The notes beneath the pieces were generated by a model. That model was not told the origin of the DNA. It worked only from the letters and a program-made list of their open reading frames with translations, and made no database searches. A DNA stretch of 57,281 bases, counting the filler, from Platydemus manokwari (taxonomy: Eukaryota): NCBI GenBank assembly GCA_037951405.1. It is 5 parts of 5 records of this genome, joined end to end, with 100 filler letters (N's around TTAATTAATTAA, not from the genome) between each part and the next. Parts side by side here need not be neighbours in the genome. Positions count along the whole stretch, not along the records: positions 31,255 to 48,142 come from JBBMOY011136994.1; 4 more parts are not named here. One strand, given 5' to 3'. The position numbers were made by a program, and so were the translations under genes. Positions 3,201 through 48,242 of the stretch are shown here, one piece after another; position 1 is the first letter of the stretch, and each line of letters opens with the position of its first letter.

Positions 3201-3386
3201 TCGAATTTTAATTATCTTTATCAAATTATAAATATCCGAGATAATAATATTTTGATGAAAAAATAAGATGACCAACAAGCCAATAAAATTTCAAGATATA
3301 ATCTTTAATAATTACACATTAAAATAACAAATAAAATTGTCTCAGCACAAAAATATTTAAAACCAATTTATTACTATAAATTAAAT

Positions 3387-6300: not shown

Positions 6301-6951
6301 TAGCATAAACAATTTAATCTTTCAGATGCTCAAAATATCTTCCTTCAACATTTATTTATATTGGTATTACTAAACAAATAGCTTCAACTATATAAAAGGT
6401 AGTTTAATAACTGTAAACCTACTTTTGGGTCATCCTATATATTGTTGAATTAGAGATTAAATAATATTACACATTGACAGTTTATAAATATACAACAACA
6501 ATCCAATGAAATTTATTCATTCGATATAAAAATAAGAATGATTGTGATCGATAAATTCTTTAAAAGATAGATTCCTTCAAAACGAGAATTAATCATCAAA
6601 TGACTATAATTTATTGAATCGAAAAAATTCTGTCTAGATCTTGATCATTTTTATTTCAGATTATTCAACTTGATATGATATCATCACTTCATTTAATTTT
6701 ATGTTGGAGGATAGCATATTGAACATTTCACCCTCGACAATAGGAAGAAAAATAAACAATTGTAAATTATTATTTTAACACACAACAGAAATACACATCA
6801 GAGAGAATGTAAAACTTTTATTCTATTTCTCTTGGTTCAGATTATTTATGAATTGCAAATTCAAAACATAAAAAATTGATTCAAAAATAAAATTTTCAAT
6901 GTAGCTGTATTTTTATTTTTAATGATGAATTTTCTCAATAATTCATTTTTC

Positions 6952-7000
<49 letters not shown>

Positions 7001-7992: not shown

Positions 7993-8469
7993 CTGAAAAA
8001 GTAATTTCTAAATGTTCATCATTTAAGTGTATTGAGCTTAAATAAAATATAATTTTAACCATCAATATATGTCTGTATTTTTTTATTTAGCATTTGATGT
8101 TTATATATCAACAATAGTAACAATATTTTATATCTTGAGATAAATCTAATAATATTAAAAAAATACGAAAAAATTGAATTATATTATAGGATTGATGAAA
8201 TAAAAAGAAATAATGTATTGCATATGTTAGCCGCTACTATTTAAAAAAACCACACATTAAAATCGAACTAAAAAGTCAAGACACAATCAATCTATTTTAA
8301 ATCCAAATATTTCTAATTTTACATTAATTTAATTTTTTATAAAATTGGAAATTCATCTGAATAAAATTGAATAAAATTTGAATAAAATTGTTTTGAATTA
8401 AATTGAAATTCAATTCATATAAAATATCTCACATCTCCAATATTCAAACAAATTATTAAAAGATATTTT

Positions 8470-8720
8470 GCCTAAAGTTAAGAAAATCTATATAGTTTAT
8501 TTCTTTATGGTTTATTCTTTAAAAACATGTTGGATTTTTTATTAAAGTATTTAAGAAGAATTTTATTTGTTTGAAATCAAATATTAAATATAACAGAGTT
8601 TCAAAATATCCTAAAATTTTATTATTTGAACAAGGGATCAAAGTAGGCCAAATTGCAATTTATTGAAAATAGGCGAGAACCCTTTTAACATTTGAAGCAA
8701 CTTGAGCGATCCTCTAAAAT
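8470..8720 (+). repeat. Dispersed repeat, copy A (probable LINE 3' fragment)
   Basis: Reverse-complement similarity to 38340-38600 and part of 23855-24170, e.g. AAAGTAGGCCAAATTGCAATTTATTGAAAATAGGCGAGAACCC. Confidence 0.7.
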
Positions 8721-8931
8721 TTACAATTGTTTGATAGAATAAGTGATACTGGATTATTAAACAAGTCTTTAATTAATTAACTCAAGATATAATTAAAAAA
8801 TTTAAATTTAAAAACTCAAAAAATCATAAAGAAGAACTGAAAAGAGAATAGGAACTTGGCTTGGTGCCTACTCGACATCATTTAATGCGAGATATCAATA
8901 AATAAATCAACTTTCACAAAATAATGAAAAA

Positions 8932-9031
8932 NNNNNNNNNNNNNNNNNNNNNNNNNNNNNNNNNNNNNNNNNNNNTTAATTAATTAANNNNNNNNNNNNN
9001 NNNNNNNNNNNNNNNNNNNNNNNNNNNNNNN
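8932..9031. other. Artificial contig linker N44-TTAATTAATTAA-N44
   Basis: The same 100-bp construct occurs four times; its core has stop codons in all six frames. Confidence 0.97.
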
Positions 9032-9889
9032 GTGTGTCAATGCTTAAATTGCTAAAACAAGGGTTTCAAGGTACGAAATCGTTTTTCTTTTTCAGGATTT
9101 TGTCTTCATTCAACAGTTGGATAGTCACATATTTTACGTACATATTGTCCAATTTCTTATTGGTGGATTTTTTTTATCATCTAAAATTTATTACATTTAT
9201 ACATCAAGATCAAGTTATCAAAACAATTCTGAGATTATAACAAAGGATTTGAATTAATTATTTATTTATGCACAGAGCTTTATAATTGCGCACTACATAA
9301 TATGCGTTAGACTATAGAATTGAATCACATAGCCCTATTAATTTTCTGAGATTGTCACATATGTTAAAAGGTACATCCAGAAGGAACTAGTAATTATTAT
9401 TCTATTTTTTCTGTAATTAAATTATTTTCGTGCAGACTAGCGCGTCAAATGAATTCGTTTGTCAAGTGCTTCATGCTCACCAGAATTATGTTCTTACTAT
9501 TATAATGAAAGAACCTTTGAGTTATCAAAACAAGTTCAATATCATCAGGAAATTTATCTGTCACTGGGATTTACAAATAATAATTTTGATAATCGAATTG
9601 TTCAGTATGCATATAGTTTTTATGAATAGTTTTGCCTTCCGAAGAAAATTTGTGTTTCTCCAAACCAAGCTGATCAGAAATCTTGATTTAATTTAACAAA
9701 TAATTTCATGCTTTCAAGAAAATGTGTTGATTTGAGAAATAGTGAAAGTGAATAAGAGATGAAATTAAATTTTTGGATCACATAGTAAGAAATGATGGAG
9801 AGAAAATAAACACTAATTAAATTGTTGAAATCTTAAATGCTTAAGATCCAAATACATCAGAATAAAGATCAATTGTTGATCTTACAAAA

Positions 9890-12800
9890 TATTACAGGTT
9901 TCGAACTTTCATTTATGGTCACGAGATACACGTACTCGCCGACCACCGAATCTTACAGTGGTTGCTACAGCATTGATACACCTCGTTTATGCTCATCCGC
10001 TGGGTGCTCAAACTACAGAAATACAATATCAAGATATATTACCGCAAGGAAAAAGCTAATGGAAATGCTGATGCTCTCTCGCGCCGACCCGGACACATGA
10101 AATAAATACAGAGAAAGTTTTCGAGGTAATCCACACATTGACTCAAGATGCCGAGGTGAGCAAGTTACAAAAGGAAGATGAAGAAATTCAGGGCTATTTA
10201 TTACAACTAGATAACATTCCCCGGAGTGGGAAACTAATGGGATTATTCATTTGCCTACAGAGCCATCGTGTACGAAGTTTATAAAAAACACCAAGGGAAA
10301 ATTGTGTTTGATAAATATCTGTTGAAGATCGAAGAGGGTGAGAAGAAGCTTATCATAGTACCAAAGGCATTCCAAGAAACGCTTGTCCTACAGAACCACG
10401 ATGAAACAGTAGGTGGACATCTTCCCATCAAAAAGACTTTGTTCAGTTTTCAACAAAAATATATATGGAGAAGTATGAAGAATGATGTCAGACAGTGGTA
10501 CATATCCTGCAAGATATGCCAGAACCGCAGGAATACAGGCAACAAATATCGAATCCCTTTAAGACCTATGCCGATTCCCACTGCTCCCATGGAGATTGTC
10601 GCAATGGATCTCGTTGGTCCCTTGCCACTCACCAACCCGGGCAATGGCTATATATTAGTTTTTTGTGATCATATGACCCGGTGGCCACAGGCCTATGCAA
10701 TACTGGACAAGCAAGCAAGTACGGTTGCCAAAGTCTTTGTGGAAGAAATTGCCTACCGGTACGAGTTACAAAAAAAATCTATTAACAGATTGCGGAACGC
10801 AATTTCTCAACAATACCCTCTATTGCATCAACAGAATGTTTAAAATAACTAATTGAACACTACACCTTACCACCCACAAACTGATGGGTAAGTTGAAAGG
10901 TTCAATGTGATACTGACGAACATGCTGGCATACTACACGAGCACCGCTCAGACCGATAGGGATGTCCACATAGCCTCCTGTTTATTTGTTTATCGAAACG
11001 CTGCTCAGGCCAGCACAGGGTACTCACCTTTCTATTTGATGTATCTGAGACATAGCCACATGCCAATAGATTGGAGATAGAACCAAAGATCTCACAATAC
11101 ATGGAAAAAGAAGATTAAGTGACCGTTATGAAAGAAGGGCTAACTGACGCATGGCAACGGGCACGATTCTCACTGAAATATCAACAGGTTTATGAAAGAT
11201 AATTATTAAAAAAAACAAGCAGGACCACACTTTACAGTTTGGAGACAAGATTATGTTGGAAACTAAAGCCTGTATAAAAAGAATATCTCTCAAATTAAGT
11301 AGACCTTTTAAGGGTCCTTACATTATCGAGAAAGTAACGGAAACAAATTTCGTCATACCCCCATGGGGAAGAGTAATGCGGAACCTATATGGGTACACGT
11401 AAACCGTTGCGAACGGTATGAAGACGTCGTTCAGATTAAAGCAAAAACAACTCAATTGACAAAAATCCAACACGAACCAGATAAAGAAAAAGAAACGACT
11501 ACTACGACAAGTCCGATGACAACATAGGGGCACAGATATCCCCTGCAATCAAAACACATAACGCTACTGATGTTCATGAGTATCATTGTATGTTGCCTGT
11601 AATACGACCAATGTGGACATTCAATTGGAAGGCATATTTGTTAACTATCAATGCTCACCGAGTGCCATCTTAATTCGGCAGAACCAAACTAATAAAAAAG
11701 TAGAGTTTACTCATCAACAATTGTTCGAAACGAGTCTGTGAGAATAATTATCCAACAATGCACCATCAATCCATATTCGGCAAAAGTCATCGACTCTGAG
11801 GATATCCAGATACAACTAAACTCGTTCAACCCAATTGCAACTGTGAAATATAATGCTACCGACATCACTATATCAAAGGAACCAGGTGCTTACTATCATG
11901 TAACAGGGTTCATACGGGACGACGACTTGAATCTGGATGTATTCTCCCTAAGCGACTGAGAGGAACGACAGTACAAGCATTATAGAGACCTGTAATGGAA
12001 ATAAATCAATGCAATACACGTATCGCTTTTGGACAAATCGAATTTCCACAAGTCCTTACTACTCTAATATTGGAAATAGTATTCGACAATGTTTTAAACA
12101 TCATCGGTACTCCTGTTCATGAATATTGTTATAATGTAACAGAGGAATTTATAAACCGATATCTCTCCTTCACTCTGCAAGCGCTCGAGAAGGACAAAGT
12201 GAGAAAGAGGACATTATTTATAGCCACAGGATGGTGGGAACCTCAAGAAACCTAACAAGCAGCGTGGTTACGCCAGCCATTGCTCTCCTTACTATTCTCG
12301 ATTATCAAGGAAAATAAATTTCCGAGTCTCACCTCGCCACTACGTAAAACATTTACGAAACGATTACATCTATAAAGTAAAGGAAACTGATATACTTAAT
12401 CAATGAGATGAAATTTCTTGTATCAAGCAAGTGAACAGGATCGTGGACCAACACATCGTCGTAGAATACAAAGTAACCGAGGTTCTGGAAGTGCTACGAA
12501 TACCGCCCGATCGCCTTTTAGGCATGAGAGACCTAGCAAGAGCGAAATGTATGGCTGCACATGGGCTTGTCAATCTCAACCAATTAAAGATTTATAAAAT
12601 CTTGAAAAAGATTGTACCAGAATAAGAAATAACAAAGCTCCATGAACTAAGGACCACGAATGCTGCGGAAGAAATCAGGTAGATATACCTCAAACTGGAA
12701 AAAGAGTGGGAAGATCACTTTAACCCACAAAAAGTGGCACCGACCATATACGAAGAAACAATGATAGACGAACTCCAGTGCGATATAGATGAAGATGTCA

Positions 12801-20458: not shown

Positions 20459-20867
20459 TGTTGGGTTTTGGTCTTATTAGTTCGTATTCCAAAAACAACG
20501 GTGAGTTCTTTAAAGTTGATCTGATTTAAATTCAAATCAACCCTCTGGCTTATCAGTCTTTATTTAATAACTATTTGCTTATGATAACAACTATTGATTA
20601 CTGAAAATCAATTATTTAAAAATAAATCAAAACAAAGTCGGTTCAATGAAAATAATCCTCTATTGAAATCAACACAAGTTACAAATTTTATATAATGAAT
20701 TAAAATTGACAATTAAATTATTAATAAATCGGATCAACAATCAAAGTTATTTACTCTACAACAAACTCTAATTTAACTCAATCAATTTATGGTTTGGGAG
20801 TGGCCAATTCGAATTTAACGAAACGACCTATGGATAATGATTTTAGAAAATATAGATTTTAAAATAT
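20459..20867 (-). repeat. Truncated copy of an LTR-like repeat (same family as 45279-46158)
   Basis: Shares TGTTGGGTTTTGGTCTTATTAGTT, TCAATCAATTTATGGT and AAACGACCTAT...TATAGATTTTAAAATAT with 45279-45720. Confidence 0.75.
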
Positions 20868-23854
20868 GTTGGTTTCAGTTTGCTTTCTTTATTCGCACCT
20901 TGATGTTTACGCCTTGTTTATGCAATATCCAGAATTCCCACAGATGTTCGATTTTCTTTCCATGAAGTCTTCTTAATTTATTAACTCGTCTCCTTGAAAA
21001 TAATATCGCAGGCAGTTTGTGGTCAAGTTTTTAGCTTTTCCAGTCAAGATTTTTGTGTTTATTCATAGGGCTTGATATTATTTTTGACTCGAAATGATCT
21101 TTTGGTTTAATCAATATGTCCGGTATTTTTTCCTAGATCTGCATGGTTTTGCTGAGTTTTCGTTCTTGTACATTCTGCCATAAGGTCGTCCTTCATCTTT
21201 TGATTTTAGAATTTAAATCTTTTGATGAATTAGAGAACGTCGGACCTATTATTTGCTGTAGAAGAACCGTAGAACTTATCAGATACTTTCGCATTATTAC
21301 GATAGAGGAGATGTTACCGTATTGATTTAAGTGGCATTTCAGTGAAATGTGAGCGGGTTCACTAATCAAACTGTCCCAAACTATGGTATACATCTCTATG
21401 GTTAAACTCTTAGCGTTCTGATGTCGATGTTAAGAATTTGTTGGAGTCAATAGCATCATAAATAAGTGGTATCCCTTTTTTCTTGAAATGCATATCATTT
21501 CTTTCTTCCATTTTTCTCGTAGAGTCAGTAGTTAATTATTTTATATTGATTTTTGGATTTTACAACTTAAATCGTGATATAAAACCCCGCATGAGTGATT
21601 CCCTTCTAGAATTTTGTTGTGTCTTCGTATTTATCATTTGTAAACTTACATCATCTAATGTAATGGGATTTGGATCCTTGTTTGAAGTCAAGTTCTGTTT
21701 GATCTGCGAATGCTTTGGGTCTCTTTGCTATGACTCTTCTTCCATTTCACAAATTTCACAACATTTGCATAGGCCAGTCTATCATTGATGTGGTATTGTC
21801 TGTTCTCTATGCGAGTATCCATGGATATTTTTAATTGGGTAATTCGATAAATTTTTCATCAAAACTCTGGCCCACCGATTTAATTGTTTGAAACCGTTCA
21901 GCGTCTACTTTGTTTGGCTTTGGCATTATTACAGTAAGGTGGTTGTGATCTCCTGTTAGCATTTCTTTTTGGACTGGGGATATTATAAGGCTAGTCAACG
22001 TTTTGGGAGTACTCGTTGAAATTGTCTAACCATTTGGGTTGTTTTCTTTGACGAAGAAGTTCGGTTTTTCTCTGGTGATTTGTTTAGAAGTTTCCCCTGA
22101 AACTGAGTTAATAATTAGACTTGTCATCTTTATAGAAATACTTATCAAAGTCATTTTTATTGGTAGATGAAAAAAGTTTTTTTTAAACATTGACCAATAG
22201 ATTTAAATTTAATTAGCTTCTCTAAAGATCGCAATCGAAACGGTTTCGCAGTCTATTTTTTCTTGATTTTTAGTAATTTCCATGTATTACTGAATTCAGT
22301 TAGATTACGCAATATTTAGTAGCTTGAAATATTTCAAAGTTCCACGTGACGTATTCGATTCAAACATCAATCCTTATACATATGTCTATATGTATGTATG
22401 TATTTTAACGAATTGAATTGCTAGTTCTAAAAGGTTTTTAATTCGTTGGTCATCATGCCTTCATGACAGTGTAGATATGTATTTATGTAAAATATAGGGT
22501 TCCAAGGTTGTAATTTATATTCTTTATACGCGACTTATGCAACTAAACTACAGCACAGAAGTGTCGTTTCCTCATTGAAGTATATCTTGGATGTTTTTGA
22601 AAAATATTTTAAAGCATTTTGGAAGACTGTGAGATCTAGAAAAGTAAATCATAACAAGAAATTGGTTTAATCTATTAGCTTTGCTTACGATTCTTTGTTC
22701 TTGTTTCTTTCTGAACTTAGTTTAGAATAAGAATTATTAGAGTTGAGACTGACATCAATTTTACAGAATCAATGTACTCGCTCAAATTAATGATAGTATA
22801 ATTATGTTCGATGGTTTTAGATGTTGTTACACTTCACTGAACGATCGAAAAATAAGATTATATTATGCAATACAATGTCATTAACAAAATTTTATCCATG
22901 TTATTGCAAAGGTAAAGATATAATGCAATTTAAGGGGAGAATTTCTATAAAGGACAAGGTTGAAGTTACAAAAACAACGTTTAAAATTATTTTGAATTTT
23001 AAGAAAATCTCGACTTGAAACTCAAAATCTCAAGAAATGCGCCGAAACTTTGATAGAGGCACTTAAGATTGAAGGATGTTTCATTACTTATTTTATTGAT
23101 GTTTTATTAATTGCAACGTTATTTCTACTTGAACGTTACCTAGTTCATTCAACATAGACGTTCTATTGAACCTTAAAGATCAACTGAGGGTTACAAATAC
23201 CCTGGATATTTTCCTTGTAGAAGTTACAACTTAATTAGGAGGCTAGGGTAATCGTTTTTATCCTTTGTTCCTGAGAAGATCTGAATGAAAATATTTTTGA
23301 AATGGTAAATTCTTGTATTTAATCTGCAGGTTCGGAAAGATTTTAGAGAAAGTTTCATTTAAAGAAGTTTTGATTACTTAGATTTTACAGGTTTGTAAAG
23401 TATATAGTAGTTCATTATATTATTGTTTACGACGATAAATAATATCCTCAAATATAAATTAGTAAAACCAATTGGGTGGAAATGCTATCGGGATAAATTG
23501 TTAGAATGATTTGCTTCTTTATTTGGAAAACATGACTTAAATTAAGAAAAGAAGCCTTTGATCTAATTTTAATGTGATGATTTTTCGTGAGTAATTTAAT
23601 TTAAAATTTTATTTATAATATTATTTTTATTTTATTTCGAATTAAAATTCAATTTTAGATAAAAAAGAATAAAAACAGCGAAATTCTGTCAATAAAAACA
23701 ATCACAATTTGATGTCGATTCAATGTTTTAAATATAAAGTAAGACATTGGTTTTTTATCTATATCTTACAAATCCTTGACTTTGAAATAGAAAGAAGAAG
23801 ATATCGAGAAATCATTAAGTTTTATGTAATAATAAATTTTTAAATATTAGGCTT

Positions 23855-31254: not shown

Positions 31255-31299
31255 ATATTTTGACAATTAATTAGCGCCGGTAAATCAGCATTTAATATG

Positions 31300-32600
31300 A
31301 TTGTGAAATTTATTACCATTTTTAAATGGAATTTTGGTTTTGAAAGGTTGAAATGACTTATACCACTTTCGTAATCAAGGGGTCATATAGTTTCTTCTCA
31401 AATTTATTTTACTTTATGCGATTAGCATTGAGAACTAATGAAATTGAAAATATTGAAATATCAAGTTTAATTAAATAACATATTAGTAGATAAAACAGAT
31501 GAAAAAAAATAGACTAGATACATGACAAAACTAAATAAGATCCATATAAAGACAATGAAGGTTTTTAAAGAATGAAAGCCTTTTATAATTAAAAAAAATA
31601 AATTTCCGTTAAAACAATTATTTGGATATTTGGAAAGTTAAAAGAGATTGTTTTATCTAATAATTATTAGGTTCACTTTAAACAGCAATATAGAAGACAA
31701 GAAAATATTTTATGGAACAAAAAGTGAAGGAAAATTAACTATGAAGTCATTAGAGTTTTATATGCCAGAGTTAACTTTAAATCCAGAAAATGAATTAAGT
31801 TTATTAGAAGGACTAAATGCTGATGATATTCCTGTTTTGCTAAATAAATAGATATTCAGATTTTATTAGTATTCCAAAAGGGATTAATATTAATTGTGTT
31901 AGCAGCATAACCAAAATAATAGCAGATTTAGGTGGAGCTGCAGGAGTAACTAGCGGTTTCGCAACTGCAGTAAATCAAGCAAAACAAGCTAATGAAACAG
32001 ACTTAGAAATTGATGAAATAAAACAGGAAAACACCGGAGCTAAATGAGTTGGCACGCATTGAAATCCTTGTGAATTTGTATGATTTCATAAAAAATAGGT
32101 ATGAAAAATTACCATTTCTAAAACAGATTAAAGGTGAAGGAATTTATTTATCACCACATGGAAAATAAATTCTTGAATAAAAATGGAAGAATAATTAAAT
32201 AAAATAGTGATAACATCTACCAGTAATAAATCAGAATGGAGATTTGGTTTCCCAATACTTTTGAAATTAGGCGAAAGCCTTTATTACAAAATTGGCTTAA
32301 TGTCGATAAGTATTTTTAATTCTGTGTATAGTATTAATCTCAATAATAATTCTTTTGAATACGAGAATACAATATATAAAACTTCACCAAGTGCTCGAGA
32401 AATTCCTGATATAAATGAAAGGATACAAAAAAGTGTTGGGGTTTATAAAATATATAATATTCCTCAATTTGGTGGTAATATAAGCCAATGTATAATATAA
32501 AAATAGAACCTGAGAAAACTACATTAAAATGCTTACAGATTACAAAAGGAAATATAAAATGGATTTCTGGCCAAGTTGACGCGTTAGACACTTAAATAGT
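31300..32600 (+). mobile_element. Polinton/Maverick (adintovirus-like) remnant: major capsid, core protein and penton fragments
   Basis: MCP-like PLKQLFGYLES...KLTMKSLEFYMPELTLNPENELSLL; core-like LGGAAGVTSGFATAVNQAKQ...KGEGIYLSPHGK*; penton-like ITSTSNKSEW.F..P...Y.IGL.S...FNSVYSIN.NNNSF. Disabled by stops and deletions. Confidence 0.7.
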
Positions 32601-34967
32601 TTAACAGTAATGTTGAACCATTTCGTTTTAAAAACACCAAGTAGATTTGGAGATTAGAGCAATCAATTACTTTAAGATTAATCACTGGATTGGAGTTTGA
32701 ATTTGACGGGGATGTCGTTCGTCTTCTTATAAACGATTTTGTTTGGGATACGCAAATAATTGAAGAGAAACGTAAGCGCCAAGCGACGCGTATTCTTCAC
32801 CAAGCACTTGTAGACTCTTATTGGCTTGAAGTTATAATTCAGGTTTTCTTAGAAGCAAAATTTGCAAACTTTTGAGATTAAATATAAATGTGTAGAGCGG
32901 TCAGATTACTGGCTATGTGTGGCGCTTTAAACACCACGGTAAGCTTTACATGCTCCCTTTGAACGTTAGTGTCTTCGAGAAAGACCCTCTTAAATTAAGA
33001 TGCCTTCGATGCTTTGTCGGGGAAGAGTCTCTGACACTTGTGTTAAAGTCATCTGTGCATTGCATGGTTTTTATTGTTCAAAGACATGATTATTAAATGA
33101 GATTGGTTAACCAATTTCTTAATTCACCGGATCTTATGGTCAATATAAAAGAAAGAGTATTAAACCTCAAACGGTGTGACACTGTTTCTAGACTTAAGAT
33201 GGATCTCTTTATGGAAAATAGCTTGAATTATCGGATGTTCTAGGTGAATAACAAATACTCGCTCGACAAGAACCGGCTGATGGAATAAGCTGATAAAGGA
33301 AATTTAGGTAATTATACATCACTGCGGGATATGATAAAGCAGTACAAGCCTAATTTTACTGTAAATATTCAGAGTTTCGTGGTGGGGTCTTTAGGTTTGA
33401 TTCCTTAGAAGGCTCTCAATTTCCTCAAAGAAATATCGGGGAGAGGAATGTCAACAAACTCACAAAATTATTGTCCACCTCGAATACCCGATCTGGAAAC
33501 ACCATCAAATGGAGGTTGCTCTTAAAGTAAGTTCCTACAAGTTAAAGGGGATTCTCAACTTCACGGACATTAGTTATTACTTTCGAGTTCCGGCTAAACA
33601 CTCGGCAGTGACTAAACTCAATTTCCAAGCTTTAGTTTAAATCAAGGGGTAATACACTGCTCTTCGAGTCCTTGCCAAAAATAGAAGACTGTGAGCAAGA
33701 TCTGATAATCCAAGCTGTAGTCTCGGCAGATGATCAATGATGCCCTTCCATGGTCTCAATGGAGAGTTTCTTCCAGAATGTCATATTCGGATAAACAGTT
33801 GTGATTTAGTTTTGAGGTTTTATGTTCTTTAGGTATAATCTTTTCAGATAATTCACAACGTATGGAATAAGCATCACGGAAGATACCACCGAATCGAGCT
33901 TTAAAGTTGCAGATCCGTCAGCGTTAATGCTCTCACTGATGATTTGTGGGAAAAACAGTACTTGAGACTCAAGGTAAAACAGAGTACAATTACCAGAATT
34001 CCCGAAAAATCTGACTTTGTCAAAATAGTTATTGATAATTATTCAGATCATCAACACTGAATCAAAGCGGATGATCCTAATTCAGCGCTCAGAAGAATTC
34101 ACGATTCAACTTCTAAGAAGCAGGTAGACTATCTATCTTGTTTTGTGATTTTTTTATATCCTTAGGGTAGTCTGAGATTAGTACTTTTCTTGATTCCATG
34201 ATCAAACCTTCTTATTGTCCTATATTGATTCTCGTTGAGTGTGCTGCCTTGTGGTCATGCAGCCCTCAACCTCATAACTAGTCGAACATCCCAAACATTA
34301 CATGTAATATGTTATATAATAAATCTTATAAGGAGTTGAAATGATTTTTGCGGTTCAAATTCAAGCTAAAGTTCATTTCCTATGAAATAAAGATTTAATA
34401 GAAATTCATTTTATCTGACAGAGAAAACATGGTCTATCATGAATCTGTTATTAAAATTGAAATCAGAATAATTTTCGAGAATTAAGCATTAAAAATATAA
34501 TAAAATATATTATCCATGTATATTAATGAGTAGTTTAATTATCAACTAATAATGAAATAATAAAAACGGTATATTTATTGTATCCCCATCTCACTGGATT
34601 TTATTTATTTATTTATTATTATTATTATTTATTGATGCGACCACAATCCATTTTGGTTTTCCTTTACTTTCGAAACTAAGTGACTATTTAATGTATTATA
34701 TTAGGAACATATTTTTACTGACATTTCAAAATATTAACCGATCTGGTGTCCCAAATCATTTTGCTCCGACAATTTTAATTTATGAATTTTCTCCCAGCTT
34801 TAAACTCATGTATATTTACGAATATTTATTCGATTTTAATTTCGATAACAAATTGGAACCACACATTCTATTTCCTATCAAGATGTTACAAAATATTAAT
34901 ATAAATATATTTTTAAAAAAATGTGGAGATTATGGCAACCAATGCAGAGAAGAAAATTCTTTTGAAT

Positions 34968-35499
34968 TGTGAAAATTCGTCACAATAAAGAATAAAAGCA
35001 ACTCGCATATTTTTATTCAACCCGAATAAAACCCCATTGTCACCACAACCATATATAAGGCAGTTAAAACATCATATGCCTTCGACATCCGCCTGTTACA
35101 AAAAGAAGCCCTTGTTTTGTAAGAAACCACTACAATAGTGTGTAGTGAAGATTCGTGAAGATAGAAGACTCGAAGTTAATTATCGCCACCAAAGCCGTCA
35201 ATTTCTCTGCAGCCGTTGTTCCAGCATATGCCCTATATTGCTTATAGGAAGAGTATCGAATAATACTAGCGATTTCCGAAGTGAAGATCACGTAAGAGTA
35301 ATAGTTTGTAAAATCATCATATTTTGCACATCAAATTATTCCAACGTTAATTGTATATTCGTAGTAATTCATAATCATAATTGTATAACAGTATTGTATA
35401 AGTAGTAATTTATAACCCCATAAGTGTATAATTATAGTCACAATATAAATTCAAAACACAATTTGAGTTGACTTAATGAATTCTTATAAGGTATCACAA
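34968..35499 (+). repeat. Possible solo LTR
   Basis: TGTGA...TCACA termini with an internal TATATAAGG; no TSD found. Confidence 0.35.
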
Positions 35500-38234
35500 T
35501 TTCATAGTAGTGATCGTCATTGTCATATACCACCTTTAACTTTTATTGGGAATAATTTTGGTTAATTAAAAAGAGACTGATTTAAAAACGAGTGAAAGTA
35601 AATAGTATCAAAATTAGTAGGATAAAGTTAAAGTTAAAATACCAAAATCGATTACTACGCCGATCCACTTATCGTCATATAAGAAGTGATCGTCGAGGCG
35701 AAAGAACATCAATAATCATAAGGTTTCACTGCTGCCTGAGGGTCAATAACGGACTCAGAGCACTGATTAAGTCGTAGAATCGATTCAGTCAATTAAAACA
35801 AACAAATAATAATAACAAGAAAAGAGAGTGACCCCAAAACGAAAAATCTGTCATAATTTTATTCAGTTTCCTATAAGTTTTGAATTGAAATATTTTTATT
35901 AATTATTCATCTCTAGTGCAATTTAGTCGAACCCATCAATCATCATCGTAAGAATGATAAATGCAATAATAATAATATATCAAAGATTATAATCTGGTAT
36001 TTATCAAAATTGTATGTGTGCTATTCAATGCCAAATCTGGGTTATCATAATTACAAACTTTGAAAGCTATTGTTGATAAATATCGTGTCATTATCATGAG
36101 ACATTCATTACGAATATCATTTTGTACATTGTATCATACATGAATGGTATTATTAAAATAATATATCAAAGTTTATTTGATATAATTCTCAATTTATGAC
36201 CAAATCAAATGATTTATGAGTACCCCTCGATAACACTAATAAACTATATTAATATCGATTAAACTGTCGATTTTATCACTCACTATTCGATAGATCTGTT
36301 TATGGAGGGGTTTAAGTTGTTCATCATTTAAAACTGGACATTAAAAATGAATATTTTTGATAGAAATTCATTGAAAAGAAAATTACGAAACGAAAATGTG
36401 AGACAAAATCTTATACAGCATAAAATCAAAAAAATTTCCGATTAATAAAATTCAAAAATATAAGGATTAGTTAACAAAATTAAAATCAATTTGAGCTTAA
36501 AAGCTTAAAATGAGTAGATAATATCCGTAATAAGAAACTCTTAACGAAAGTTGGACTCAAATATTGGTATGAAATAGCAGATGTTTCCTAAGTAGGGAAA
36601 GCCAAATCCTATTACAAATAATTAGTTACAAGAAATACAATAACCAACTTGGATGTAACTAGAGGAATGTTATATAAAGACGGAATTAAAACCTGACAAA
36701 GAAAGAAAAGCAAAGATAAACCTTGACAACAAAGAATTAAGCATAAACAAATTCTAACCAATTACAAGTAAGCTAAAAGAGTAACACTTAATTACAAATA
36801 TATGCTAAATTACAGGGAAACTTGCACAGAAATGACTGTCGAGGACAATGGTCAATGAATAATTAATTATCGAGAATCTTAAGATCCGTTTCACTGGAAT
36901 AATGCAAGATTCAATGGCTTTGTTAATTCTTCATCTAATTTGCATTCAATCGACAGTTTTTACTTAGTTTGAATAATGATTCCCGGGAGAGTAATATTTA
37001 TTTCGATGTAAGAAGAGCATTTAGTAACTTTCTAAGATAAAGATCCCTTTACACCTTTTTGACTGGGCCTGGATCTCATTAGTTCTTGTCTCGAGTTGAA
37101 TTGTTTTGCTGCTTATAATTCTATTATTAAACACACTGATATTTATACCAGGAAATCATTAACCTGTAATCTACTTTCTCCCAGGAGTCAGAAATCAGTT
37201 CTCAATCATTATCATAATAAGTACAAGTATCATCGGATATACATAAATATTGATACACTGTTATTATATTCGCCAATTAAATCTTATCAAGCGAATGGAA
37301 TAATTTTTACAAATGTTCGTCAATTAATCAAACTGACGAGTACTCAATATTGTTTGATATCAAACCTTTATTATTAACCTTTAAAATTGTGTCATTGTTC
37401 ATGTTACTAAATTAAGATTCTCATGCCATGATAAATGATGGAATATTACTGATTAGTTGACTCATGGGCGCCAAGACATTTTGTTCAAAACATTGACAGA
37501 ACAATATTAATAAAATGTCGTGGACAACAGTAATATTATTGTTTAGATCTTGTGTTTGACCTTACATTGTCATTGATTGGTGATCATGTTTTCAGAATGA
37601 TTCAATAATATTGAAATCATCTATTTCTGATAAAAACCATTAAAGCAAACACCCACCTAGATATGTTCATGCACAGAACATCTATGCCATTCATTTACAC
37701 GACATATATTGATTGTTGTCAATTTCAAGTTTAATCAGTGGCATTTAATAGCACCACTCATGTCGATGTTGTTTATTTGCCATTGATCGATATGCTGATT
37801 TTCATATCAAAAATATGAATTCATTGAAATGTGTGACACCAATTATCTCTAATTTTAAAATCTAATCATATTCAGCCTTATGGTAAAAATCAAAGGTAAA
37901 TCTCAGCCTTAATAATAAAATATTCAAACCAAGCCAATTTTCAATTACTCTCAATAGTTATATAACCGAGTTTGAAATTTTTTTTCTTTTTTAAAATTTG
38001 TTTTTAAATATTTTAAAATGGCCTAAGTTAAGAAAAAGGTCCTTTGACCTTCTTTTGTTATAATGAATTTTCGCGCATCAGATATTTTTATAACTTAATT
38101 TTATATATAACTGCTATGTTTGATTTATTCGTCTAATTCAGTTAATATCTCACTTTTTAAGATGTCTAATAGTGACAAAACATAGTTTTAAAGCCAAGTT
38201 CCCATTCTAATCACGACATTTCTATATGATTATT

Positions 38235-38625
38235 TGAGGTTTTAAATTTACATTTTTATAATTATAAATCGAGTTAGTTAATTACAGCCATGTTTAATAA
38301 TATCATTGGTTATTTTTATAAAATAATTGTAAATATTGAGAATATCTCTCAGCTTGCTTCTAATGTTAAAAAAGGGGTCCTCGCTAATTTCCAATAAATT
38401 GCAATTCGACCTACTTTTATCCGTTTTTCAAATAATCCAATTTTAGGAGATTTTAGAGCTCTGGTGTATTTAATATTTGATGTCAAACAACTAAAATTCT
38501 TCTTAAGTGTTTGAATAAAAAATTCAAAATCTTTTTAAAGAATATAATTAAATAAACTATATAGAATTTAGCAATGCACTCAACAAATTTAAAATTTCAT
38601 TTTAGAACCCTTTTTAATTTTAGCC
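38235..38625 (-). repeat. Dispersed repeat, copy C (probable LINE 3' fragment)
   Basis: Matches copies A and B. The minus strand reads IGLFEK/TDKSRSNCNLLEISEDPF across a frameshift, reminiscent of the Cys-rich C-terminus of LINE ORF2. Confidence 0.65.
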
Positions 38626-38794
38626 CAAATTTTTCTTTTCTCATTTAACATATCATGTCATCACACGATGTTCACATATAAAGTGCAATAGTGACTGTCA
38701 TAAAGCCATTATGATTTCTCAATATTTTCTCATTAAATTATATTTTTATAGAAGCGAATAAAAATAAAAATTCACAAATGAAAAATATTGAAAC

Positions 38795-39719
38795 CTCCGA
38801 TAATTCATTCTCATTGGGTGAATTCATAACGTTTTGTAATTGCCCATCTTTCAGTTCCCATAGAGAATGGTTGATATGGAAACCATTAGCCGATTGTTGC
38901 GTCAATGGCACACTCATGTAGCTGGCTATCATTCCCATTTCATCAGCTGCATATTTCGACATCTCTCTAAAAAACCACTCATTGTCTACCGATTGCAATC
39001 CAAAATAAGGTTTCAAAGAAATTTCAATTTGTCCTTGCCCGTCTTCAAGATTCCAGCTATCTATTTCGATGTCTGGAATGATTCAACAACAATTCATATG
39101 CAAAAAGACTTATATAAGCTATACCTAGCTTATTCATCTGCCTTTGTAGGTTTCTAATATAGGGCAAGATTAGTGTTTTTTGCATGAATTGATCATAAGA
39201 ATAAATCTTGTCAGGATATGGCCGTAGAGAAACTTTATCAAACAACCGGAATTCATTTTCAACTCCAACAAAAAGTGAATAACCCGACGTTTCAAGCTCC
39301 TTCGTGAAAGAAAATAGTGAAAAAAAATTGATGAGTAAAGTAATAAACTTTAATCTTGGTTTTAGCAAGCAGGCGAGGATTGAACGGCCAAGGTTGATTA
39401 GTGTCGATATCATACGTATCGAAAAATGCCATTGCCAGTGTGTTGTCATGACACCAAGGACATACACGGATACTTTCTTTGTCCAATACGATATTTTTGT
39501 TGCAATAATGAGCATCTAAATTATTTTAATCTGCATGGAATTGACAAGAACAAATGTTCCCATACCTGTCAACTCCTTAATGGTCACTGGTACTTCACTA
39601 CGATTACCCAACACTTCTATCACTCCTATCATTTCTTCTTTCCCACTCAATAAGTCTTTGAATTTCTTGATTGGGAACATTTTTCCTCTGGCAATTCCAT
39701 TAATGTCCACACTGATAGG
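38795..39719 (-). CDS. Type-I glutamine synthetase-like / lengsin-like protein (internal exons)
   Basis: Phase-consistent exons 39719-39566 (SVDINGIARGK), 39515-39349 (IRVCPW...PFNPRLL), 39299-39125 (GVENEFRLF), 39072-38795 (EDGQGQIEISL...SANGFHINHSLW). First and last exons were not located. Confidence 0.85.
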
Positions 39720-40818
39720 CTGAGAATGAAATGATTTAATAAATGGAATCACCCAATATACCGTTATAATTCATGATTATCACACTGTCATTACAATGCC
39801 CACAATCAATTGTTAATCAGTACTTCATTCTGCTCTCACACATATTTAGCATAGCTCAATAAAAATAGAAACGAAATCGATAACATCACAACGATGAAAT
39901 ATAATTTGACAAAATTGTCACAATTTTTAGAGATCAAGAACATCTGACCCTTTTATTCGATTGGGCCTCCTACTCATTGAATTAATTTTAACTTGATACT
40001 GCTCTTCAAAGCAATTTTTCAACTCAATTTCTATCTCAATCTTTCTCTTAATATGATCACAGACTGGCCCATAGATACCAGTGACCATTAATTAATTAAC
40101 CATGCTTGATTAATCGTGTTAATTAACCTCCATTTTTTTTAAAATTATTTGACGAATCGAGACATTATTTCCAGCTTTTCCTATTTTCTTGATGTCGAAC
40201 ACGAGTTATTTATATGCATATCAATACTTATGACTTCAAATATCCATTTATTCCTTCATATTATTCAGTCGCTCTATAATGACGTCAGCATGCACATTCC
40301 TAGCTAACGTAGGTCATTTATGTGTCCAACTAATTAAATCGTAGCCATCACTGATGGCGAATCATTTAATAATCAAATTATCTCTACGAAATCAGCTAGC
40401 AATGGCACCGATTTTCTGTTCAGAGAATATATAAATTTAAATAATCGAATCGAAACTTTTGGAAAAAATATTCCTTTAATGCCTCGAATTACATTTATAA
40501 GGGGATTAGAATAATTCCATTTCAAGGGGATTATTTATCATTGATTTGTGGAAATTTTATTTTATGGAAATAAAAGGAAATATGATATTGATATTAATGG
40601 AATATCGATTTCATATTGGTTTGTGTCAATATACAACATAAATGCTGTTTCAATATTTACAGAATATCTCCAAAAATGTTTTATGCATATGTACAATTAG
40701 CCCACATGTTAACTAAATACGACCACATGAATGAAAGGAAAAGGAATTTTTCTGTAAATCTTCCCATATGAACATTTTTCATCACTAACTCATGAATAAG
40801 CAATCATTTGGTTTTATT

Positions 40819-41080
40819 TATCGGTTTGTTTATGGTCTCTTTCGAGGGCTTTTCTTGTCTATAGCATTATCTATCGATTTGTTTATGGTCTCTTTCGAGA
40901 GCTTTTCTTGTCTATAGCATTATCTATCGGTTTGTTTATGGTCTCTTTCGAGAGCTTTTCTTGTCTATAGCATTATCTATCGGTTTGTTTATGGTCTCTT
41001 TCGAGGGCTTTTCTTGTCTATAGCATTATCTATCGGTTTGTTTATGGTCTCTTTCGAGGGCTTTTCTTGTCTATAGCATT
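40819..41080. repeat. 53-bp minisatellite, about 4.9 copies
   Basis: Unit TATCGGTTTGTTTATGGTCTCTTTCGAG(G/A)GCTTTTCTTGTCTATAGCATTATC starts at 40819, 40872, 40925, 40978 and 41031. Confidence 0.95.
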
Positions 41081-44000
41081 TCCAAAAGTTCTTCAATGAA
41101 ATTGGTATAAATTCACTCCATAATAAATTTCCTAAAATGAAAAATCCTTATCTGGTCTCGTCTCATACACTTTGAGATGGGTTAATCATTTTAATGCATG
41201 ACACCATTCCCCGACATTACTCGATGACATTTGTTTTCCTATCTCTAGACATCAGACACTTCACCTTAAAACCAATGAAGAGCATTTACATAACAGACAT
41301 CATTCTGACATCACAAATATTGCCAACAACTATAGCGACAATTTTACTCTCCTAATTGCTCATATCAATCACCAGCAGTAGCAGATAAAAATTATTTGTT
41401 CTACAAATCAGCATTTACAACCAGCTTTCATTCCACAATGCGTGCATCAATGAACTACTGAATTATTCTACATGCATTTTTATCAGATCGTTAACGAAAT
41501 ATTGAGCCAATTTTCGAAGAAATTGAGTGTGGATAATTATTGGAACCATTCATGGCACCATACGTCATCATTAGTACGAGCATCTAAATCATTTTAATTC
41601 GACGATATTCGTGGTTAATGTCGAAGTATTTGTCGATAATCGTGAAGAATCTTTACATGCAAAGCAATAAATGAAATCTCACTTGGATAAAATCGACTTC
41701 CTTTGGTAGATCCATCATTTGAATAAGTTCAACAATATTCGTGGAGAAATTGAAATTCGATAGCCTGACATCCAATTGGTTTCTGTTGCAGTTATTTGTA
41801 CATGTGTTGGCATGTGTGGTGTTTTGATGTGTGTTTCGATGAAATGTGTGTGTCGATGAAATGTGTGTGTGTATATGACATTGAAGGTATTCGGGATAAA
41901 AAATCCATAACTTCTGGTGAACACAAGCGAGTACTAATCTGTGTAGAATGTCAAATAGCAGAATTGAAATTAAAATTTTTCGAGATGATCAATAAACAGA
42001 AGGAATTTTAACGGGTCAAATGAGTTAATGGAAAGTTTCATCAATTAATGTGGAAAAGAAAGATTCTTGGAGGTGGAAAATGCTATTAATTATAACCAAA
42101 ATTGGTCTATAATGCTTGTTATGTAGGATATAATTATAATTGCGATACCCGATAGGTTTTCTACATCTGGTGTAATGTGCATGTAAATATTTGTCATGTA
42201 ATTCAATGGAAAGGCAAAATAATTAATAATGCTTACAATTGAAAAGTCAAATCTTTGACAAATGAAGTTCCTCTGCTCTAGCTATCGACCAATTTCACTC
42301 TTCCATCATCGAAACGCATGTGGCTAATTCATAGTTTATAGATTATTATAAATTTAACATGAATATTGGGCTTGTATCAGTCTATCAATGGTGGCATTAA
42401 TTTTACTGAAGGGATAATAACGTGGAATTTCCGATGTTTCCCCCTGTTACACTTCAAATATTAAAGATAAATAAAAGAAAAAGAAATCAAGCAATGCTAA
42501 TAATTATAAAAACCAAATTTTCTGTACATCAATAATTTTATCAATAAGAATCAATTAATTTGTGCTTCTGAACGTTTTCATACTCTTAGTCTTACAGCTT
42601 GAATAATGACCAAATACCATTACGTAAGTGTAGCCACAAATCAGAAAGATTTTCTTTGTCTTTTTCCATTGGAATGCAATATCTAGATTTTCTAAATATT
42701 TCCAACTGTAATCTCCATTTAATGATTTATCAATATCAATCGATAATAATCATTATTAATATTATATCGTCACAATAATATCGTTGAAAATCACTCAGAA
42801 ATCATCAAATATTTCATAAAATTCGTAAAACGAACTTTTTAAATACTGTGTTTTACAATGGCAACCATTGTTCCAAGATCATTATTATTTCATTCCATAG
42901 AATTATTTTTCTATCATCATAATTCCATTGATCCGGAAACATTGTAATTCTATATTTTAAATAAAACGATATAGCATGAAAAATAATCGAAACAATGAGG
43001 TCATTTGGTTCACTTTATCCCAATAATAACAACTAATGAATTAATTCAATTTTCCGTGACGACAAAAGAAGATGTATCTTGTAGTCACACACATACACCT
43101 CGTCATGGAAACCATATATTAAGCTGTGTGTTTCTTCCTACACCAATCAATTGAATTTCAACAAATAATTGTTCGATAGCAACATAATTGATGTTATTGA
43201 AAACGCGGAGCCAAAACTCAGGTTAAAAAACATCTTTCCAATAATTTTATCATCAATACAAGTTGTGATTAAATCAATTGTATATCGATTTTGAATAATT
43301 ATTCGACAACCTCCTAAATAGGATCAGAAATAAAGTGAATAATTATTGTTTATAAATACTAGATAGGTACACTACTTATATAAACGCTACTCACTATGAC
43401 TAGATGCCATCTATACTCTTATCATTCCTGTTTATCCACCATCTGAAAAAATGTATAAATTGCTGAAGGAATTCAGCACAATCACTTAACAAACCAAATA
43501 GAAATACGATATTTATTAAGATTTGTAATGGCGAGGATTCAATGTAATCCAGTGATTTCAGTCAACATTTGCAATGGGAAAATAAGAAGTCTTTTACAAT
43601 GGAATCTACAATGCAGGCGGAATTGTAAACAAGAAACTAAATCCACCATTAACCACGTGGTTAAAATACACAGTCATTACTATTGGATATAGTTTATTTT
43701 ACAGCCCAATCCATAACATTTCATTTACTAGAAATGTTTAATTCATTCCACCTTCCATTGATATTCTTAATTTTGCCCGTATTGACCATCTTCTCTCAAC
43801 TACATTTTCTAAATGCTTCTCGATATTCTTTCAAATTCCATTGTCAGTTTAATTTTCAAAACGATTTTTATATACAGTGCAGGAAATGTGTTGTAGAAAT
43901 GTATGGTCCCAAGGACGAAGGTCTTCAAGATGCCATCCATTATTTTTGGTAGGCTAGTTAATATTATTATGGATATTATTATTATTTACTATAACTACAT

Positions 44001-45278
44001 GTACATGTTTCAGTAATCGTGCAAGATAATCTGACAATATCTCAATATGGACACATATCTCCATCATGACTGTGGATATGGATTATTTATTTTTGTCGAT
44101 TTGTCTCATATAATAGATGTCAGCAGACTCATTATATTATATTATATTGTATATACATGTCCAGGTGATAATATTGATTGGGTTCTAGCTTATTTAAACT
44201 AATGATTATGTTGAAACCTTTCCAACGTTACGCATCATTTGATCTGAAGCACCTTTGTTCATGGAAATCGATAGAGATGATGCGATATTATAGAGATTGC
44301 GGGTATCGACATAATAAACGCAACAACAAAATGTAAATGTTGAAAAAATTTTTAAAAAATGACATAAAGGTTAAAATTAAAATTAAATCACACCGTTTGA
44401 AGAAATTCTAGGAAAAGGAAATAATGAGAAATGGAGATATTATTAAGGGTCTTTCAATAGATGATTCTGGTGTTATCAAAGTGGTTAAATAACCATTAAC
44501 ATTGAGATGAGTTTCTCTCATTGCGTAATAGGTGTTCTATGAAGAGATCAAGGCATTGTTTAAAATATGAAAATCAATTTCATATTGTTATTATATCGAA
44601 TTGGGGATAAAACAAATAAAATCGAATATTTTGGACCATTTATCAGCTAATATTTTGACAAGTATGTCATAAGTGAGACATATTTGTGAGGAATCCTGAT
44701 GAGCTGATGATTGTTGGTCAAATATTTGTACCATGTAATTGATTATAATATCGCGTTCCCAGTATTAATAGATTTATTCTCTCCATCATCTATGAACATT
44801 ATCAGGAAATATTTTCGATATCATTATCGATTTGGCTCTGTTATAAATAAGAATTAAATGCGTATGAAGTGCTGATGTCAAATGTGTCAAAATAATATCG
44901 ATTTATTTTCAAGAATATTGATTCGAGTTTAATGTCAAAATCAATTCTATGAGATAAAGAACGATATAGCAACCAGACCGGAATAAATATTTCATCTCAA
45001 TACATTGATCCTTTTCTCAAATTTTAATATTCATAAAATTATCTCGAGACAGTTTATTTGCTAATTTCGATTTTGATTTAATTTTAAAATTTATCGATTT
45101 CATTGTCACGTATTTCAATGTTTCAATTTTTTATTTACAATTTCTCATCACGCATATATTGTGACCGATTTCGATATTTCATCATTTCTGTGATAACATT
45201 GGATCAGGACAACACATTATGGGCCATTTCATAACAATCTATCAGTTACAAATCACATCTATGCTTTATTATAGATAT

Positions 45279-46158
45279 TGTTGGGTTTTGGTCTTATTAG
45301 TTAATATGCCCAACACGGGTGACTTTTTCAAGCTGGTCTGATTTCAACTCAAATCAACTCTCTCGATTATCAGTCTATAATTAAATATCCACTTATTATG
45401 TAAAAGCTATTCTATTGACTAGAATAACAACCTTTTATTACTTATATTCAAAAACAATTATTAAAATAATAAATCAAAACTGAGGACACTTTTATAAGAA
45501 AAAGTCCGCTATTGAAAATCAAAACAAATTACAAAGTTTTCAGAATATTTTACAATTAACGATTATTGATTTATTAATAAATCGGACCAACAAACAAAAT
45601 TATTTAACCTACAACAAACTCCATTTTGGCTCAATCAATTTATGGTGCGTGAGTGGTCGATTCGAATTTGACAAAACGACCTATAAGTAATGATTTTAAA
45701 TAATATAGATTTTAAAATATATTTTTATTTTCGTTCTGGCAACCTCCGCACCTTTGAGTTAATTCCGTTTAAGCAAAGTATCCAATATTACCAAGTGCGT
45801 TGTAGTTGATGCTTGTGGATCTTTCGAAGTCTATGGATTCTTCGTCCGGAAACAAGTATCGTCGTCAGCAGTTTTTCTGTTTTAAAGTTTTTGCTTTCTA
45901 AGAGTTTTCTTTCTCAGTTCAGACTTTTAAATTTTCTTGTTAAGATTTTATGTCTAATTTTATGTGAGCTAAAGATAATGATTTTTGGTGCCTATTTATA
46001 GCATTTTAGAAGTGGAAAATTCGCTTTAGAAATTTAAAGTATTTTTATTTTTTCACTTCGAAATTAAAATTATTTTATTTTTCCAAAAATTTAATACTAA
46101 TATTTTATTAATTCTATTAAATAAATTCTATTAATTTTAGACTTTTAGAAATTCCAAC
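45279..46158 (-). mobile_element. Putative solo LTR
   Basis: Termini TGTTGG...TCCAACG, a minus-strand TATAAATAGG near 45930-45940, and a second copy at 20459-20867. No TSD confirmed. Confidence 0.55.
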
Positions 46159-46513
46159 GAATTAATTTTGGAATTTCTATATATATATAAACACAACTTG
46201 GAAATTTATATAAGTTCATTTTATTTTTGCCTTTATTATTATTTTTAGGTGAGCTATTTATTATTTTTGTCATCCGATTTATTTTTAAGTTTGTTTTTCA
46301 TTAAAAATTTCCATTAATTTTAAAATATAATTTTTAACAAAATACGTTATACACTGAATACAAATATTTGAGTACAAATATTCCAGTATTCAATTTCTTC
46401 CTCTTGTTCTTTAATTTGTTTTAGTTTTTCCGTTCTTCCTTTCGGATTGCTGCATCTCTTTTATCTCGGAATTCATTATTAATTTTTTCTGATCCGTGGA
46501 TATCTTGTGCGGA

Positions 46514-47092
46514 TTACCTCAGCGGTTGATGGACTATTGGGTCTGTGGGTATCATTTTGTAATGTCGTGTGTTGGGATCTACCTTACAGATATCACTTGT
46601 TTCCTCATCGTCATCGAAGACTAGCGCATCTTGGTTCGAGATGGCCAAAGCCTTTTTTATTATTGGGGGCAGGAAGATGGGCGCTTCTGGATTAAGGGGT
46701 GGTTGAGCCCCGATGCTTTGAACCCATCGTAGATATTGCTTGGAGTCTTGGCTGTTGTTCTGCCGTGTAGATGGCGTGGTCTGTCCATTCTGGCTCCAAT
46801 TTTTTGTAGATGGCAATAATTGAGTCTAGCGAACTTAAGAGCCCTCCGAATGGCATGCTGTTATAGACTGGGCCTGCTATGTATGAATGGTCTTTCCAGC
46901 TCTTTTGGACATGATGAGTGCAATGGAGCACATTTTCTGGTACTGATCCCATAATAAATTCGTTTCGTTAATCCCCATGTGCCTGAGAGTATTGCGCGTA
47001 TGATACTGAAGATCCCCATTAAGTACAAAACTGTTATTGTCAACAAAACTAAGAAAGAAATGCTCAAGACGGTTTTCAACATATGTATTCAT
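46514..47092 (-). CDS. Cassette of overlapping ORFs downstream of the capsid-like gene (unknown function, one TM helix)
   Basis: Four overlapping minus-strand ORFs in GC-enriched sequence; 46861..47082 starts with hydrophobic MLKTVLSISFLVLLTITVLYLMGIFSII. Confidence 0.4.
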
Positions 47093-47147
47093 AACAAATG
47101 ATAACTGATTAAATAATACTGTTTAAATATATTAGTTTATCCAATCA

Positions 47148-48142
47148 TTATGGAGCTTTAGTAGTAGTGGTAGTTGGAGCCTGAGTAGTTGTTGGGTCTA
47201 TTGACATGTCTCTTTCGTCGCAATCAACCTCTCTATCTTTGTCGGGAGCAACAGCATTATCAGCGTACCTAGTTAGCATATTAATTTATAAATAAATAAA
47301 CAAATGTGCTAACCTTGCTGGCATAACTAATTTGAGATTGTCTTTCATGCTTGGAAATAATATACTATTTTCAATTTTTGTGTTGGTAAAATCAAAATCA
47401 GATACATAATAAAAAAAGGAACTAGATAAGGTTGTTTCATCACTTTCCATGTTCTAGTCGGTCCATGATTTTGTAATGGTTGTAAACCATCATATGCTAC
47501 ATGAGTAGGAAATTTATTATTGACAGTGATTTGAGCAAAGTAAGGCTGTACAGCTTTACCGTAAACTTTAAATCGATATTCTACTTTCCATTTAAAAGTA
47601 CAAGTAAGTTTTGCCTTGTTACCATTAGGTCCCATGCAAGACTTGAGTTTAACAAATAACATATTCATTGGAGCATGTTCAGAAGCATCTTCCATGTCTG
47701 CAATTTCTCTGTATTGATTCTTTGCAGCTTGTGTTTTATTGTGTTCCGTTGTAGGATTTTGCAATGTTCCTGTATCATCAATCAAATCTAATTTAATTCT
47801 TTTTAGTTCCAAATTGGTTTTGTAATCTTTCAAATACGGACATGGAAATTCCATTCGTCGAGGTTCATGAAACATGTTACCCTCTTTATCGAAACATCTT
47901 CGACCATATCGTCCAGCGAAGAGGTTACGTAATGGTCTAACAATTTTACAATTGAATTTATCAAAACGATATAGTTTGCTAGCGCATTTATCCTTTTGAA
48001 CAGTTGATCATTTTTGAGAATAAAATTCCGAAGTTAAACGAGGTAATTTTTGAGATGCACCATAGTTTTTTTGTTCTTCTAACCAGTATTTGTGTTTCTT
48101 TGGACCGATGAAATCGAAATGATGTAACAATCCATATAATTC
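47148..48142 (-). pseudogene. Endogenous parvovirus-like capsid (VP) gene, C-terminal portion
   Basis: The frame runs from the contig edge (48142) through one TGA (48008-48010) into ORF 47345..47875. EHAPMNMLFVKLKSCMGPNGNKAKLTCTFKWKVEYRFKVYG resembles the P-x-x-F-I-K / last beta-strand segment of parvoviral jelly-roll capsids. There is a frameshift in the T7 run near 47411-47417 and a putative 45-nt intron. Confidence 0.55.
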
Positions 48143-48242
48143 NNNNNNNNNNNNNNNNNNNNNNNNNNNNNNNNNNNNNNNNNNNNTTAATTAATTAANN
48201 NNNNNNNNNNNNNNNNNNNNNNNNNNNNNNNNNNNNNNNNNN
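48143..48242. other. Artificial contig linker
   Basis: N44-TTAATTAATTAA-N44. Confidence 0.97.

Follow-up and report, generated by a model that had tools for sequence, protein, structure and literature searches.

A real protein-coding gene, now broken, lies on the minus strand at the edge of one contig of the Platydemus manokwari genome (assembly GCA_037951405.1). Its Lys-rich product has no relative in the databases searched. Our preferred, still tentative, explanation is that the frame may be the fossil of a capsid gene that came from a small ssDNA virus of an unsampled lineage, either parvovirus-like or with a single jelly roll of the CRESS-like kind. Judged from its sequence, it is not a member of any virus genus tested. 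The window, i.e. the whole stretch of DNA that was analysed (57,281 nt), is AT-rich and carries animal genes (a Mint-like PDZ gene, FANCD2). The features discussed below are listed in Table 1.

Table 1. Coordinates of the features discussed, counted along the window
Feature	Position	Strand	Remarks
Main reading frame, orphan Lys-rich protein	47348..48142	-	265 codons; 5' end cut by contig edge
Single in-frame TGA	48008..48010	-	seen in window sequence; outside the X1 contig pieces listed (8 of 1403)
Residues 155-196: P-x4-FVK, turn, alternating strand	47555..47680	-	ungapped to conserved chaphamaparvovirus VP block; weak statistics
Downstream frame	47151..47453	-	one internal stop (47288), Thr/Pro/Asp-rich end, double stop 47150-47145
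A7 run near the probable coding-frame switch	47411..47417	+	inside X1 contig matching the window with 0 differences
GT..AG intron-like stretch	47269..47313	-	45 nt, 80% AT, holds internal stop 47288; weak-to-moderate candidate
High-copy repeat, likely transposable-element remnant	45279..47000		LTR-like end at 45279; inner boundary approximate
Host glutamine-synthetase-like gene	38741..39770	-	introns of about 50 nt; same contig as the frame
Contig carrying the frame	31255-48142		bounded by linker at 48143
N44-TTAATTAATTAA-N44 linker	48143..48242		4 copies in window; most likely joins separate contigs

The main frame extends from the edge of the contig down to a stop (47347-47345); downstream of its single internal TGA, 220 codons are free of stops. 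None of the 1000 sequences generated under each of three null models contained 220 codons without a stop, or 265 interrupted by a single one, and none of 60 window-sized simulations reached 220. The long frame with one TGA that had been described in an earlier, sequence-only reading of this DNA was thus confirmed. The GC content per codon position (0.43/0.33/0.22) is coding-like. One stop per about 240 codons corresponds, if equal rates are assumed, to a neutral divergence of about 2% (95% range 0.06-12%).

Two properties of the frame had been taken as signs of foreign origin. The region is indeed GC-richer than the window (0.334 versus 0.295), but this is no foreign mark, the host FANCD2 frame being at 0.346 and the neighbouring repeat at 0.422; neither base nor codon composition separated viral, host and transposon frames. 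The argument from a lack of exon fragmentation does not hold: the host FANCD2-like frame is unbroken for 954 codons, so a long frame is no mark of a foreign gene here, and the frame downstream of ours contains a 45-nt intron-like stretch. The FANCD2-like gene itself (window positions 52814-49953, minus strand; Pfam PF14631, E 1.5e-55) could be a retrocopy or consist of a single, very large exon, in a genome with introns of about 50 nt elsewhere.

The downstream frame overlaps the 3' part of the main frame. A homopolymer frameshift had been proposed here, and an A7 run was found near the point where the second frame takes over; the frameshift at or near this run can only be inferred, as there is no homologue from which the site of the switch could be read. 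One contig of a public run (X1) covers 47164-47928 without a single difference to the window, so that neither the A7 run nor the intron-like stretch is an assembly error there. The assembly may itself derive from X1, and the match is not independent support.

The structure of the downstream frame bears on the first alternative, a lineage-specific host gene that is now a pseudogene or null allele, with short introns of host type interrupting its 3' part. We consider this somewhat unlikely. The overall and codon-position GC of the frame falls within the host exon range, its depth is near single copy and its composition is unlike that of known capsids. The intron-like stretch is close in length to host introns (47-55 nt in six located by eye), which suits a host gene just as well as a viral one, and its AT content was reached by none of 99 false candidates in FANCD2. 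Its splice score, however, was 7.9 (fifth of 47 candidates), lower than the best false candidate (9.0) and than host introns, which score 15.5-19.7 when self-scored and hence inflated. Splice candidates across the TGA scored 1.1 and -2.0, none of them good, and candidates overlapping the TGA or the frame switch remained within background. A host gene must also be reconciled with the lack of a homologue in any protein collection searched.

The position at 48143, which had been put forward as a gap to be spanned with long reads, is a linker. Identical N44 linkers are found at 8932, 18513, 31155 and 48143, and the window is most likely five contigs artificially joined, so the DNA past 48143 is most likely no true neighbour of the frame. 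On the inner side the frame adjoins a high-copy repeat. The LTR-like repeat at 45279 reported earlier proved real: 45279-45723 is 75% identical to 20459-20870 over 448 columns, and its depth is high. X1 was mapped on 41200-48142; its summed depth, which does not equal copy number, was 170-12,500 over the repeat (45144-46999) and 13-30 over the frame, compared with 12.8 for a unique host contig. Other copies of the repeat seem to diverge near 46874. Three degenerate overlapping frames (81, 91 and 103 codons; window positions 47122-46514, minus strand) lie in or beside the GC-richer repeat; they had 0 matches in Pfam and 0 credible matches in NCBIfam.

That the frame belongs to a transposable element, whether the neighbouring repeat or a rare element of the Maverick/Polinton or DIRS type, and was captured as a fragment now in decay, is in our view unlikely. 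It does stand next to a high-copy repeat with degenerate frames on the same strand, and a basic, Lys-rich protein would suit a nucleic-acid-binding transposon product. Against this, a lightly decayed transposon would be expected in many copies of more than 80% identity, whereas the depth falls to near single copy over the frame, and Pfam reported no transposon domain in it, though integrase domains elsewhere in the window were found by hmmscan. A decayed LTR-retrotransposon integrase region lies at window positions 10238-12252 (plus strand), and a DNA-transposase-like remnant, hAT-like by eye only, at 30125-28713 (minus strand).

The frame is likely integrated in host chromosomal DNA. The presence of a host gene on the same contig, the single-copy-like depth and the in-frame stop agree with the integration argued for in the sequence-only reading; among the 8 of 1403 X1 pieces listed, none bridges the repeat (45378-46388) or the stretch 47096-47164, which makes integration likely rather than proven. 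The near single-copy depth next to a high-copy repeat and the intron-bearing host gene on the contig fit a chromosomal, recently disabled gene. The suggestion that the insertion is young and resides in the host genome is reasonably supported by the divergence estimate, the depth and the glutamine synthetase gene. Further features of the window are a tandem array at 40814-41080 (about five 53-nt units, ~97% identity), a Mint/X11-like gene with PTB and PDZ domains and introns of 47-48 nt (6153-3377, minus strand), and coding exons at 25966-24852 (minus strand) that look perilipin-like by eye, Pfam giving no such match.

Relatives of the orphan protein were sought at several levels. Pfam returned chance rows only (E 0.14-0.27), with no capsid family at E<=1, and there was no match in PHROGs (best E 0.26), NCBIfam or PDB sequences. 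A 5.8-billion-cluster search gave no match at 121-385 or 386-2000 residues, and 1.84 billion cluster representatives gave 0 matches at E<=0.001. No match was found in the ESM Atlas for the whole protein or for residues 95-195, the recognition value being below the reliable range, nor in IMG/VR loci and phage records, nor among 151 and 176 metagenome candidates, nor by exact look-up of four sequences. The window holds no second copy of the frame, and 144 VP queries against the window gave no row on the frame among the best 20. Searching IMG/VR with one chaphamaparvovirus VP motif gave no match; with one NS1 motif, 43 loci were retrieved, of which none could be recognised as parvoviral. The outcome named beforehand as evidence against a capsid, namely that a cellular or transposon protein would be the best match, did not occur. 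Orphan status despite slight decay counts in favour of a virus, since relatives would be more expected for a conserved host gene or an active transposon family.

For the capsid test, natural genomes were gathered using motifs as search patterns, and 120 of 166 chaphamaparvovirus VP matches were used. The final VP set (n = 144) comprised these 120, 14 Parvovirinae-like, 6 densovirus-like and 3 brevihamaparvovirus-like proteins, and one of a small PLA2-bearing type (L063); group labels are our own assignment, except for the named chaphamaparvovirus rows and three loci checked with Pfam. The motif region of the query aligns without gaps with a conserved chaphamaparvovirus block that we take to be betaH-betaI, but with weak significance, as 2-25% of shuffles score as well. 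All anchors were picked after the query had been seen.

The motif P-x-x-x-F-I-K, on which the sequence-only reading had relied, is not present. Its strict form, P-x3-F-[IV]-K, found in 72 of the 120 chaphamaparvovirus and 5 of the 14 Parvovirinae VPs, is absent from the query, which has P-x4-F-V-K; the pattern P-x4-F-[IV]-K occurs in 35/120 and 4/14 of the same VPs and in 10 of 1000 shuffles. On whole-VP profiles, shuffles scored at least as high as the query in 225 (chaphamaparvovirus) and 214 (Parvovirinae) cases per 1000, and the densovirus profile reported no domain on it; on the Parvovirinae, densovirus and brevihamaparvovirus-like profiles the query was at background. On the chaphamaparvovirus profile the query scores -2.2, against about 700 bits for chaphamaparvovirus VPs themselves. 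True VPs of other genera, too, score at most 5.6 bits on whole-VP profiles outside the PLA2 region, and a three-sequence chaphamaparvovirus profile run against PDB yielded one non-chaphamaparvovirus entry only, at E 0.1.

Block profiles were built on anchors located in 84 of 120 chaphamaparvovirus and 11 of 14 Parvovirinae VPs. Shuffles equalled or exceeded the query 207, 67, 23 and 125 times per 1000 on the four profiles. The best of the four, combining chaphamaparvoviruses and Parvovirinae, matched residues 163-193 in the expected register, with 23/1000 shuffles and 7/866 window frames as high. An ungapped 42-column block (from 73 of 120 chaphamaparvovirus VPs) peaked at residue 155, the register that had been picked by eye; 424 of 5000 shuffles scored as high with BLOSUM62 and 905 of 5000 with BLOSUM45; six true Parvovirinae VPs left 0-58 of 200 shuffles as high. 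A two-segment test placed its second segment at residue 155 in three of five profile sets. Shuffles as high numbered 122-212 of 500 in four sets and 11 of 500 in one. For 12 true VPs that had been held out, z ranged from -1.4 to 1.9, no better than for the query, so this test has little power. The profile tests as a group were weak in outcome and underpowered. The spacing between an upstream anchor, chosen by eye, and the motif is about 115 residues, compared with 105-106 in densoviruses and 124-149 in chaphamaparvoviruses.

Composition sets the protein apart from the VP set. Residues 1-240 contain 12.1% Lys with a net charge of +7.5%; in none of the 144 VPs does a stretch of 240 residues reach this Lys level (the highest values were 9.6% Lys and a charge of +5.8%). 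The proposal of a parvovirus-like, possibly Hamaparvovirinae-like, capsid stands neither established nor overturned: a weak register match to the chaphamaparvovirus block speaks for it, and the lack of a significant match and a Lys content outside all 144 VPs speak against it.

Parvoviral capsid proteins have an eight-stranded single jelly-roll fold. Structure prediction followed by a fold search had been recommended as a check. AlphaFold run without an alignment gave two models with pLDDT of 39.3 and 35.7, and four fold searches with these low-pLDDT models returned background-level rows only, with no capsid jelly roll listed. Since the models failed, the fold searches carry no weight either way. 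VIA fold matches (Z up to 6.4) of a ferredoxin-like type over the last 70 residues were dismissed as meaningless, because these residues include the stretch past the probable frame switch.

With 13 queries, no NS1/Rep partner was found in the window (best E 0.26), nor were other copies of the frame; the sequence-only reading had suggested looking for both. The gene is cut off by the contig end, however, so the DNA upstream of it is missing. There were no convincing inverted repeats in 44800-48142, and predicted folding 3' of the stop was weak (-7.2 and -10.4 kcal/mol). Endogenous elements often lose their ends. The VP1 of most, though not all, parvoviral genera carries a PLA2 motif, and the N-terminal part of our protein, where it would lie, is cut off by the contig edge. 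An endogenous viral element derived from a non-capsid gene or from another virus group (an RNA virus or a large DNA virus) is quite improbable: orphan status, low copy number and slight decay would fit any endogenous viral element and the high Lys content is unlike parvoviral capsids, but the only positive hints, themselves weak, point to a capsid strand pair in the expected register, and the 13 NS1/Rep queries were without a match.

If the frame is a fossil capsid gene, DNA of a small ssDNA virus would have entered a germline or stem-cell chromosome beside a transposon remnant, by end-joining or with the help of a mobile element. Released from selection, the capsid gene would then have gained the stop and, probably, the frameshift, as a consequence of which the full protein is presumably no longer made. 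Residues 155-196 might form the two final strands of the jelly roll; the GH loop before them would be short and the C-terminal tail after them long, as seen in small chapparvovirus capsids. Two layouts, both drawn by eye, are conceivable: in one, the frame would be the C-terminal half of a VP of parvoviral type whose GH loop is short, in the other a nearly whole compact jelly roll of the CRESS type. It is doubtful, though conceivable, that the gene represents an undescribed parvovirus-like group that recently infected this animal lineage and has no relative among the 1.84 billion protein clusters, its capsid being unusually basic, with a spliced C-terminal tail and a GH loop of small size.

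The difficulty of recognising such a capsid has precedents. According to PMC13426907, assignment to the Parvoviridae rests on NS1 (HUH endonuclease plus SF3 helicase), parvoviral VPs are highly divergent without family-wide sequence homology, the VP of one real parvovirus resisted both clustering and modelling, and the Hamaparvovirinae are now the Hamavirinae, with four vertebrate genera. In a solved chapparvovirus capsid, the GH loop is described as short and the C-terminal segment as long (PMC12115719). Of the known VPs compared here, those of chaphamaparvoviruses (Hamavirinae, e.g. the SsChPV capsid 9NEK) share with the query an ungapped 42-residue block ending in the last conserved strand, a similar anchor spacing and a long tail. 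They differ in the absence of any significant sequence match, in conserved G-[IV]-P-L-F-D and K-K-R residues that the query lacks and in Lys content, which is higher in the query than in all 120, and the query has no NS1 in the window. Brevihamaparvovirus-like and densovirus VPs have a short two-anchor spacing (83-106 residues); on their profiles the query scores no higher than shuffles do, and these VPs lack the F-[IV]-K motif.

Parvovirus-like endogenous elements are already known from invertebrates. Published reports describe 26 densovirus loci in tapeworms that carry terminal repeats and a VP of 321 aa (PMC6880638), the PIVE and PEVE elements in planarians (PMC3198968), chaphamaparvovirus-derived elements in invertebrate genomes (PMC6631224) and NS1 integrations in flatworm genomes (PMC13055364). 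EmuDNV of Echinococcus and PIVE/PEVE resemble our frame in being chromosomal, parvovirus-like and present as frameshifted or truncated copies, EmuDNV also having a small VP (PMC6880638; PMC3198968). In a comparison by description rather than by VP sequence, they differ in that their NS1 is recognisable, that they bear inverted terminal repeats and that they occur in many copies, features not seen for the query. Should the fossil-capsid reading be true, the frame would mark, with its host assigned, an unsampled lineage of viruses with a capsid that evades the sequence searches run here, and could serve as bait for a living virus in this host; a host orphan or a transposon fragment would be ordinary.

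Small single-jelly-roll capsids of the CRESS-like kind, represented by the L063 VP, show by eye strand-like motifs in the same order within about 190 residues. The L063 VP scored no domain against the query, and the query matches no Pfam capsid family at E<=1. A search for relatives of the L063 VP returned only itself. The locus (L063:819-3387) lies in a viral record of 3.75 kb, whose Rep is weakly NS1-like and whose capsid frame of 448 codons bears PLA2 and matches no Pfam coat family.
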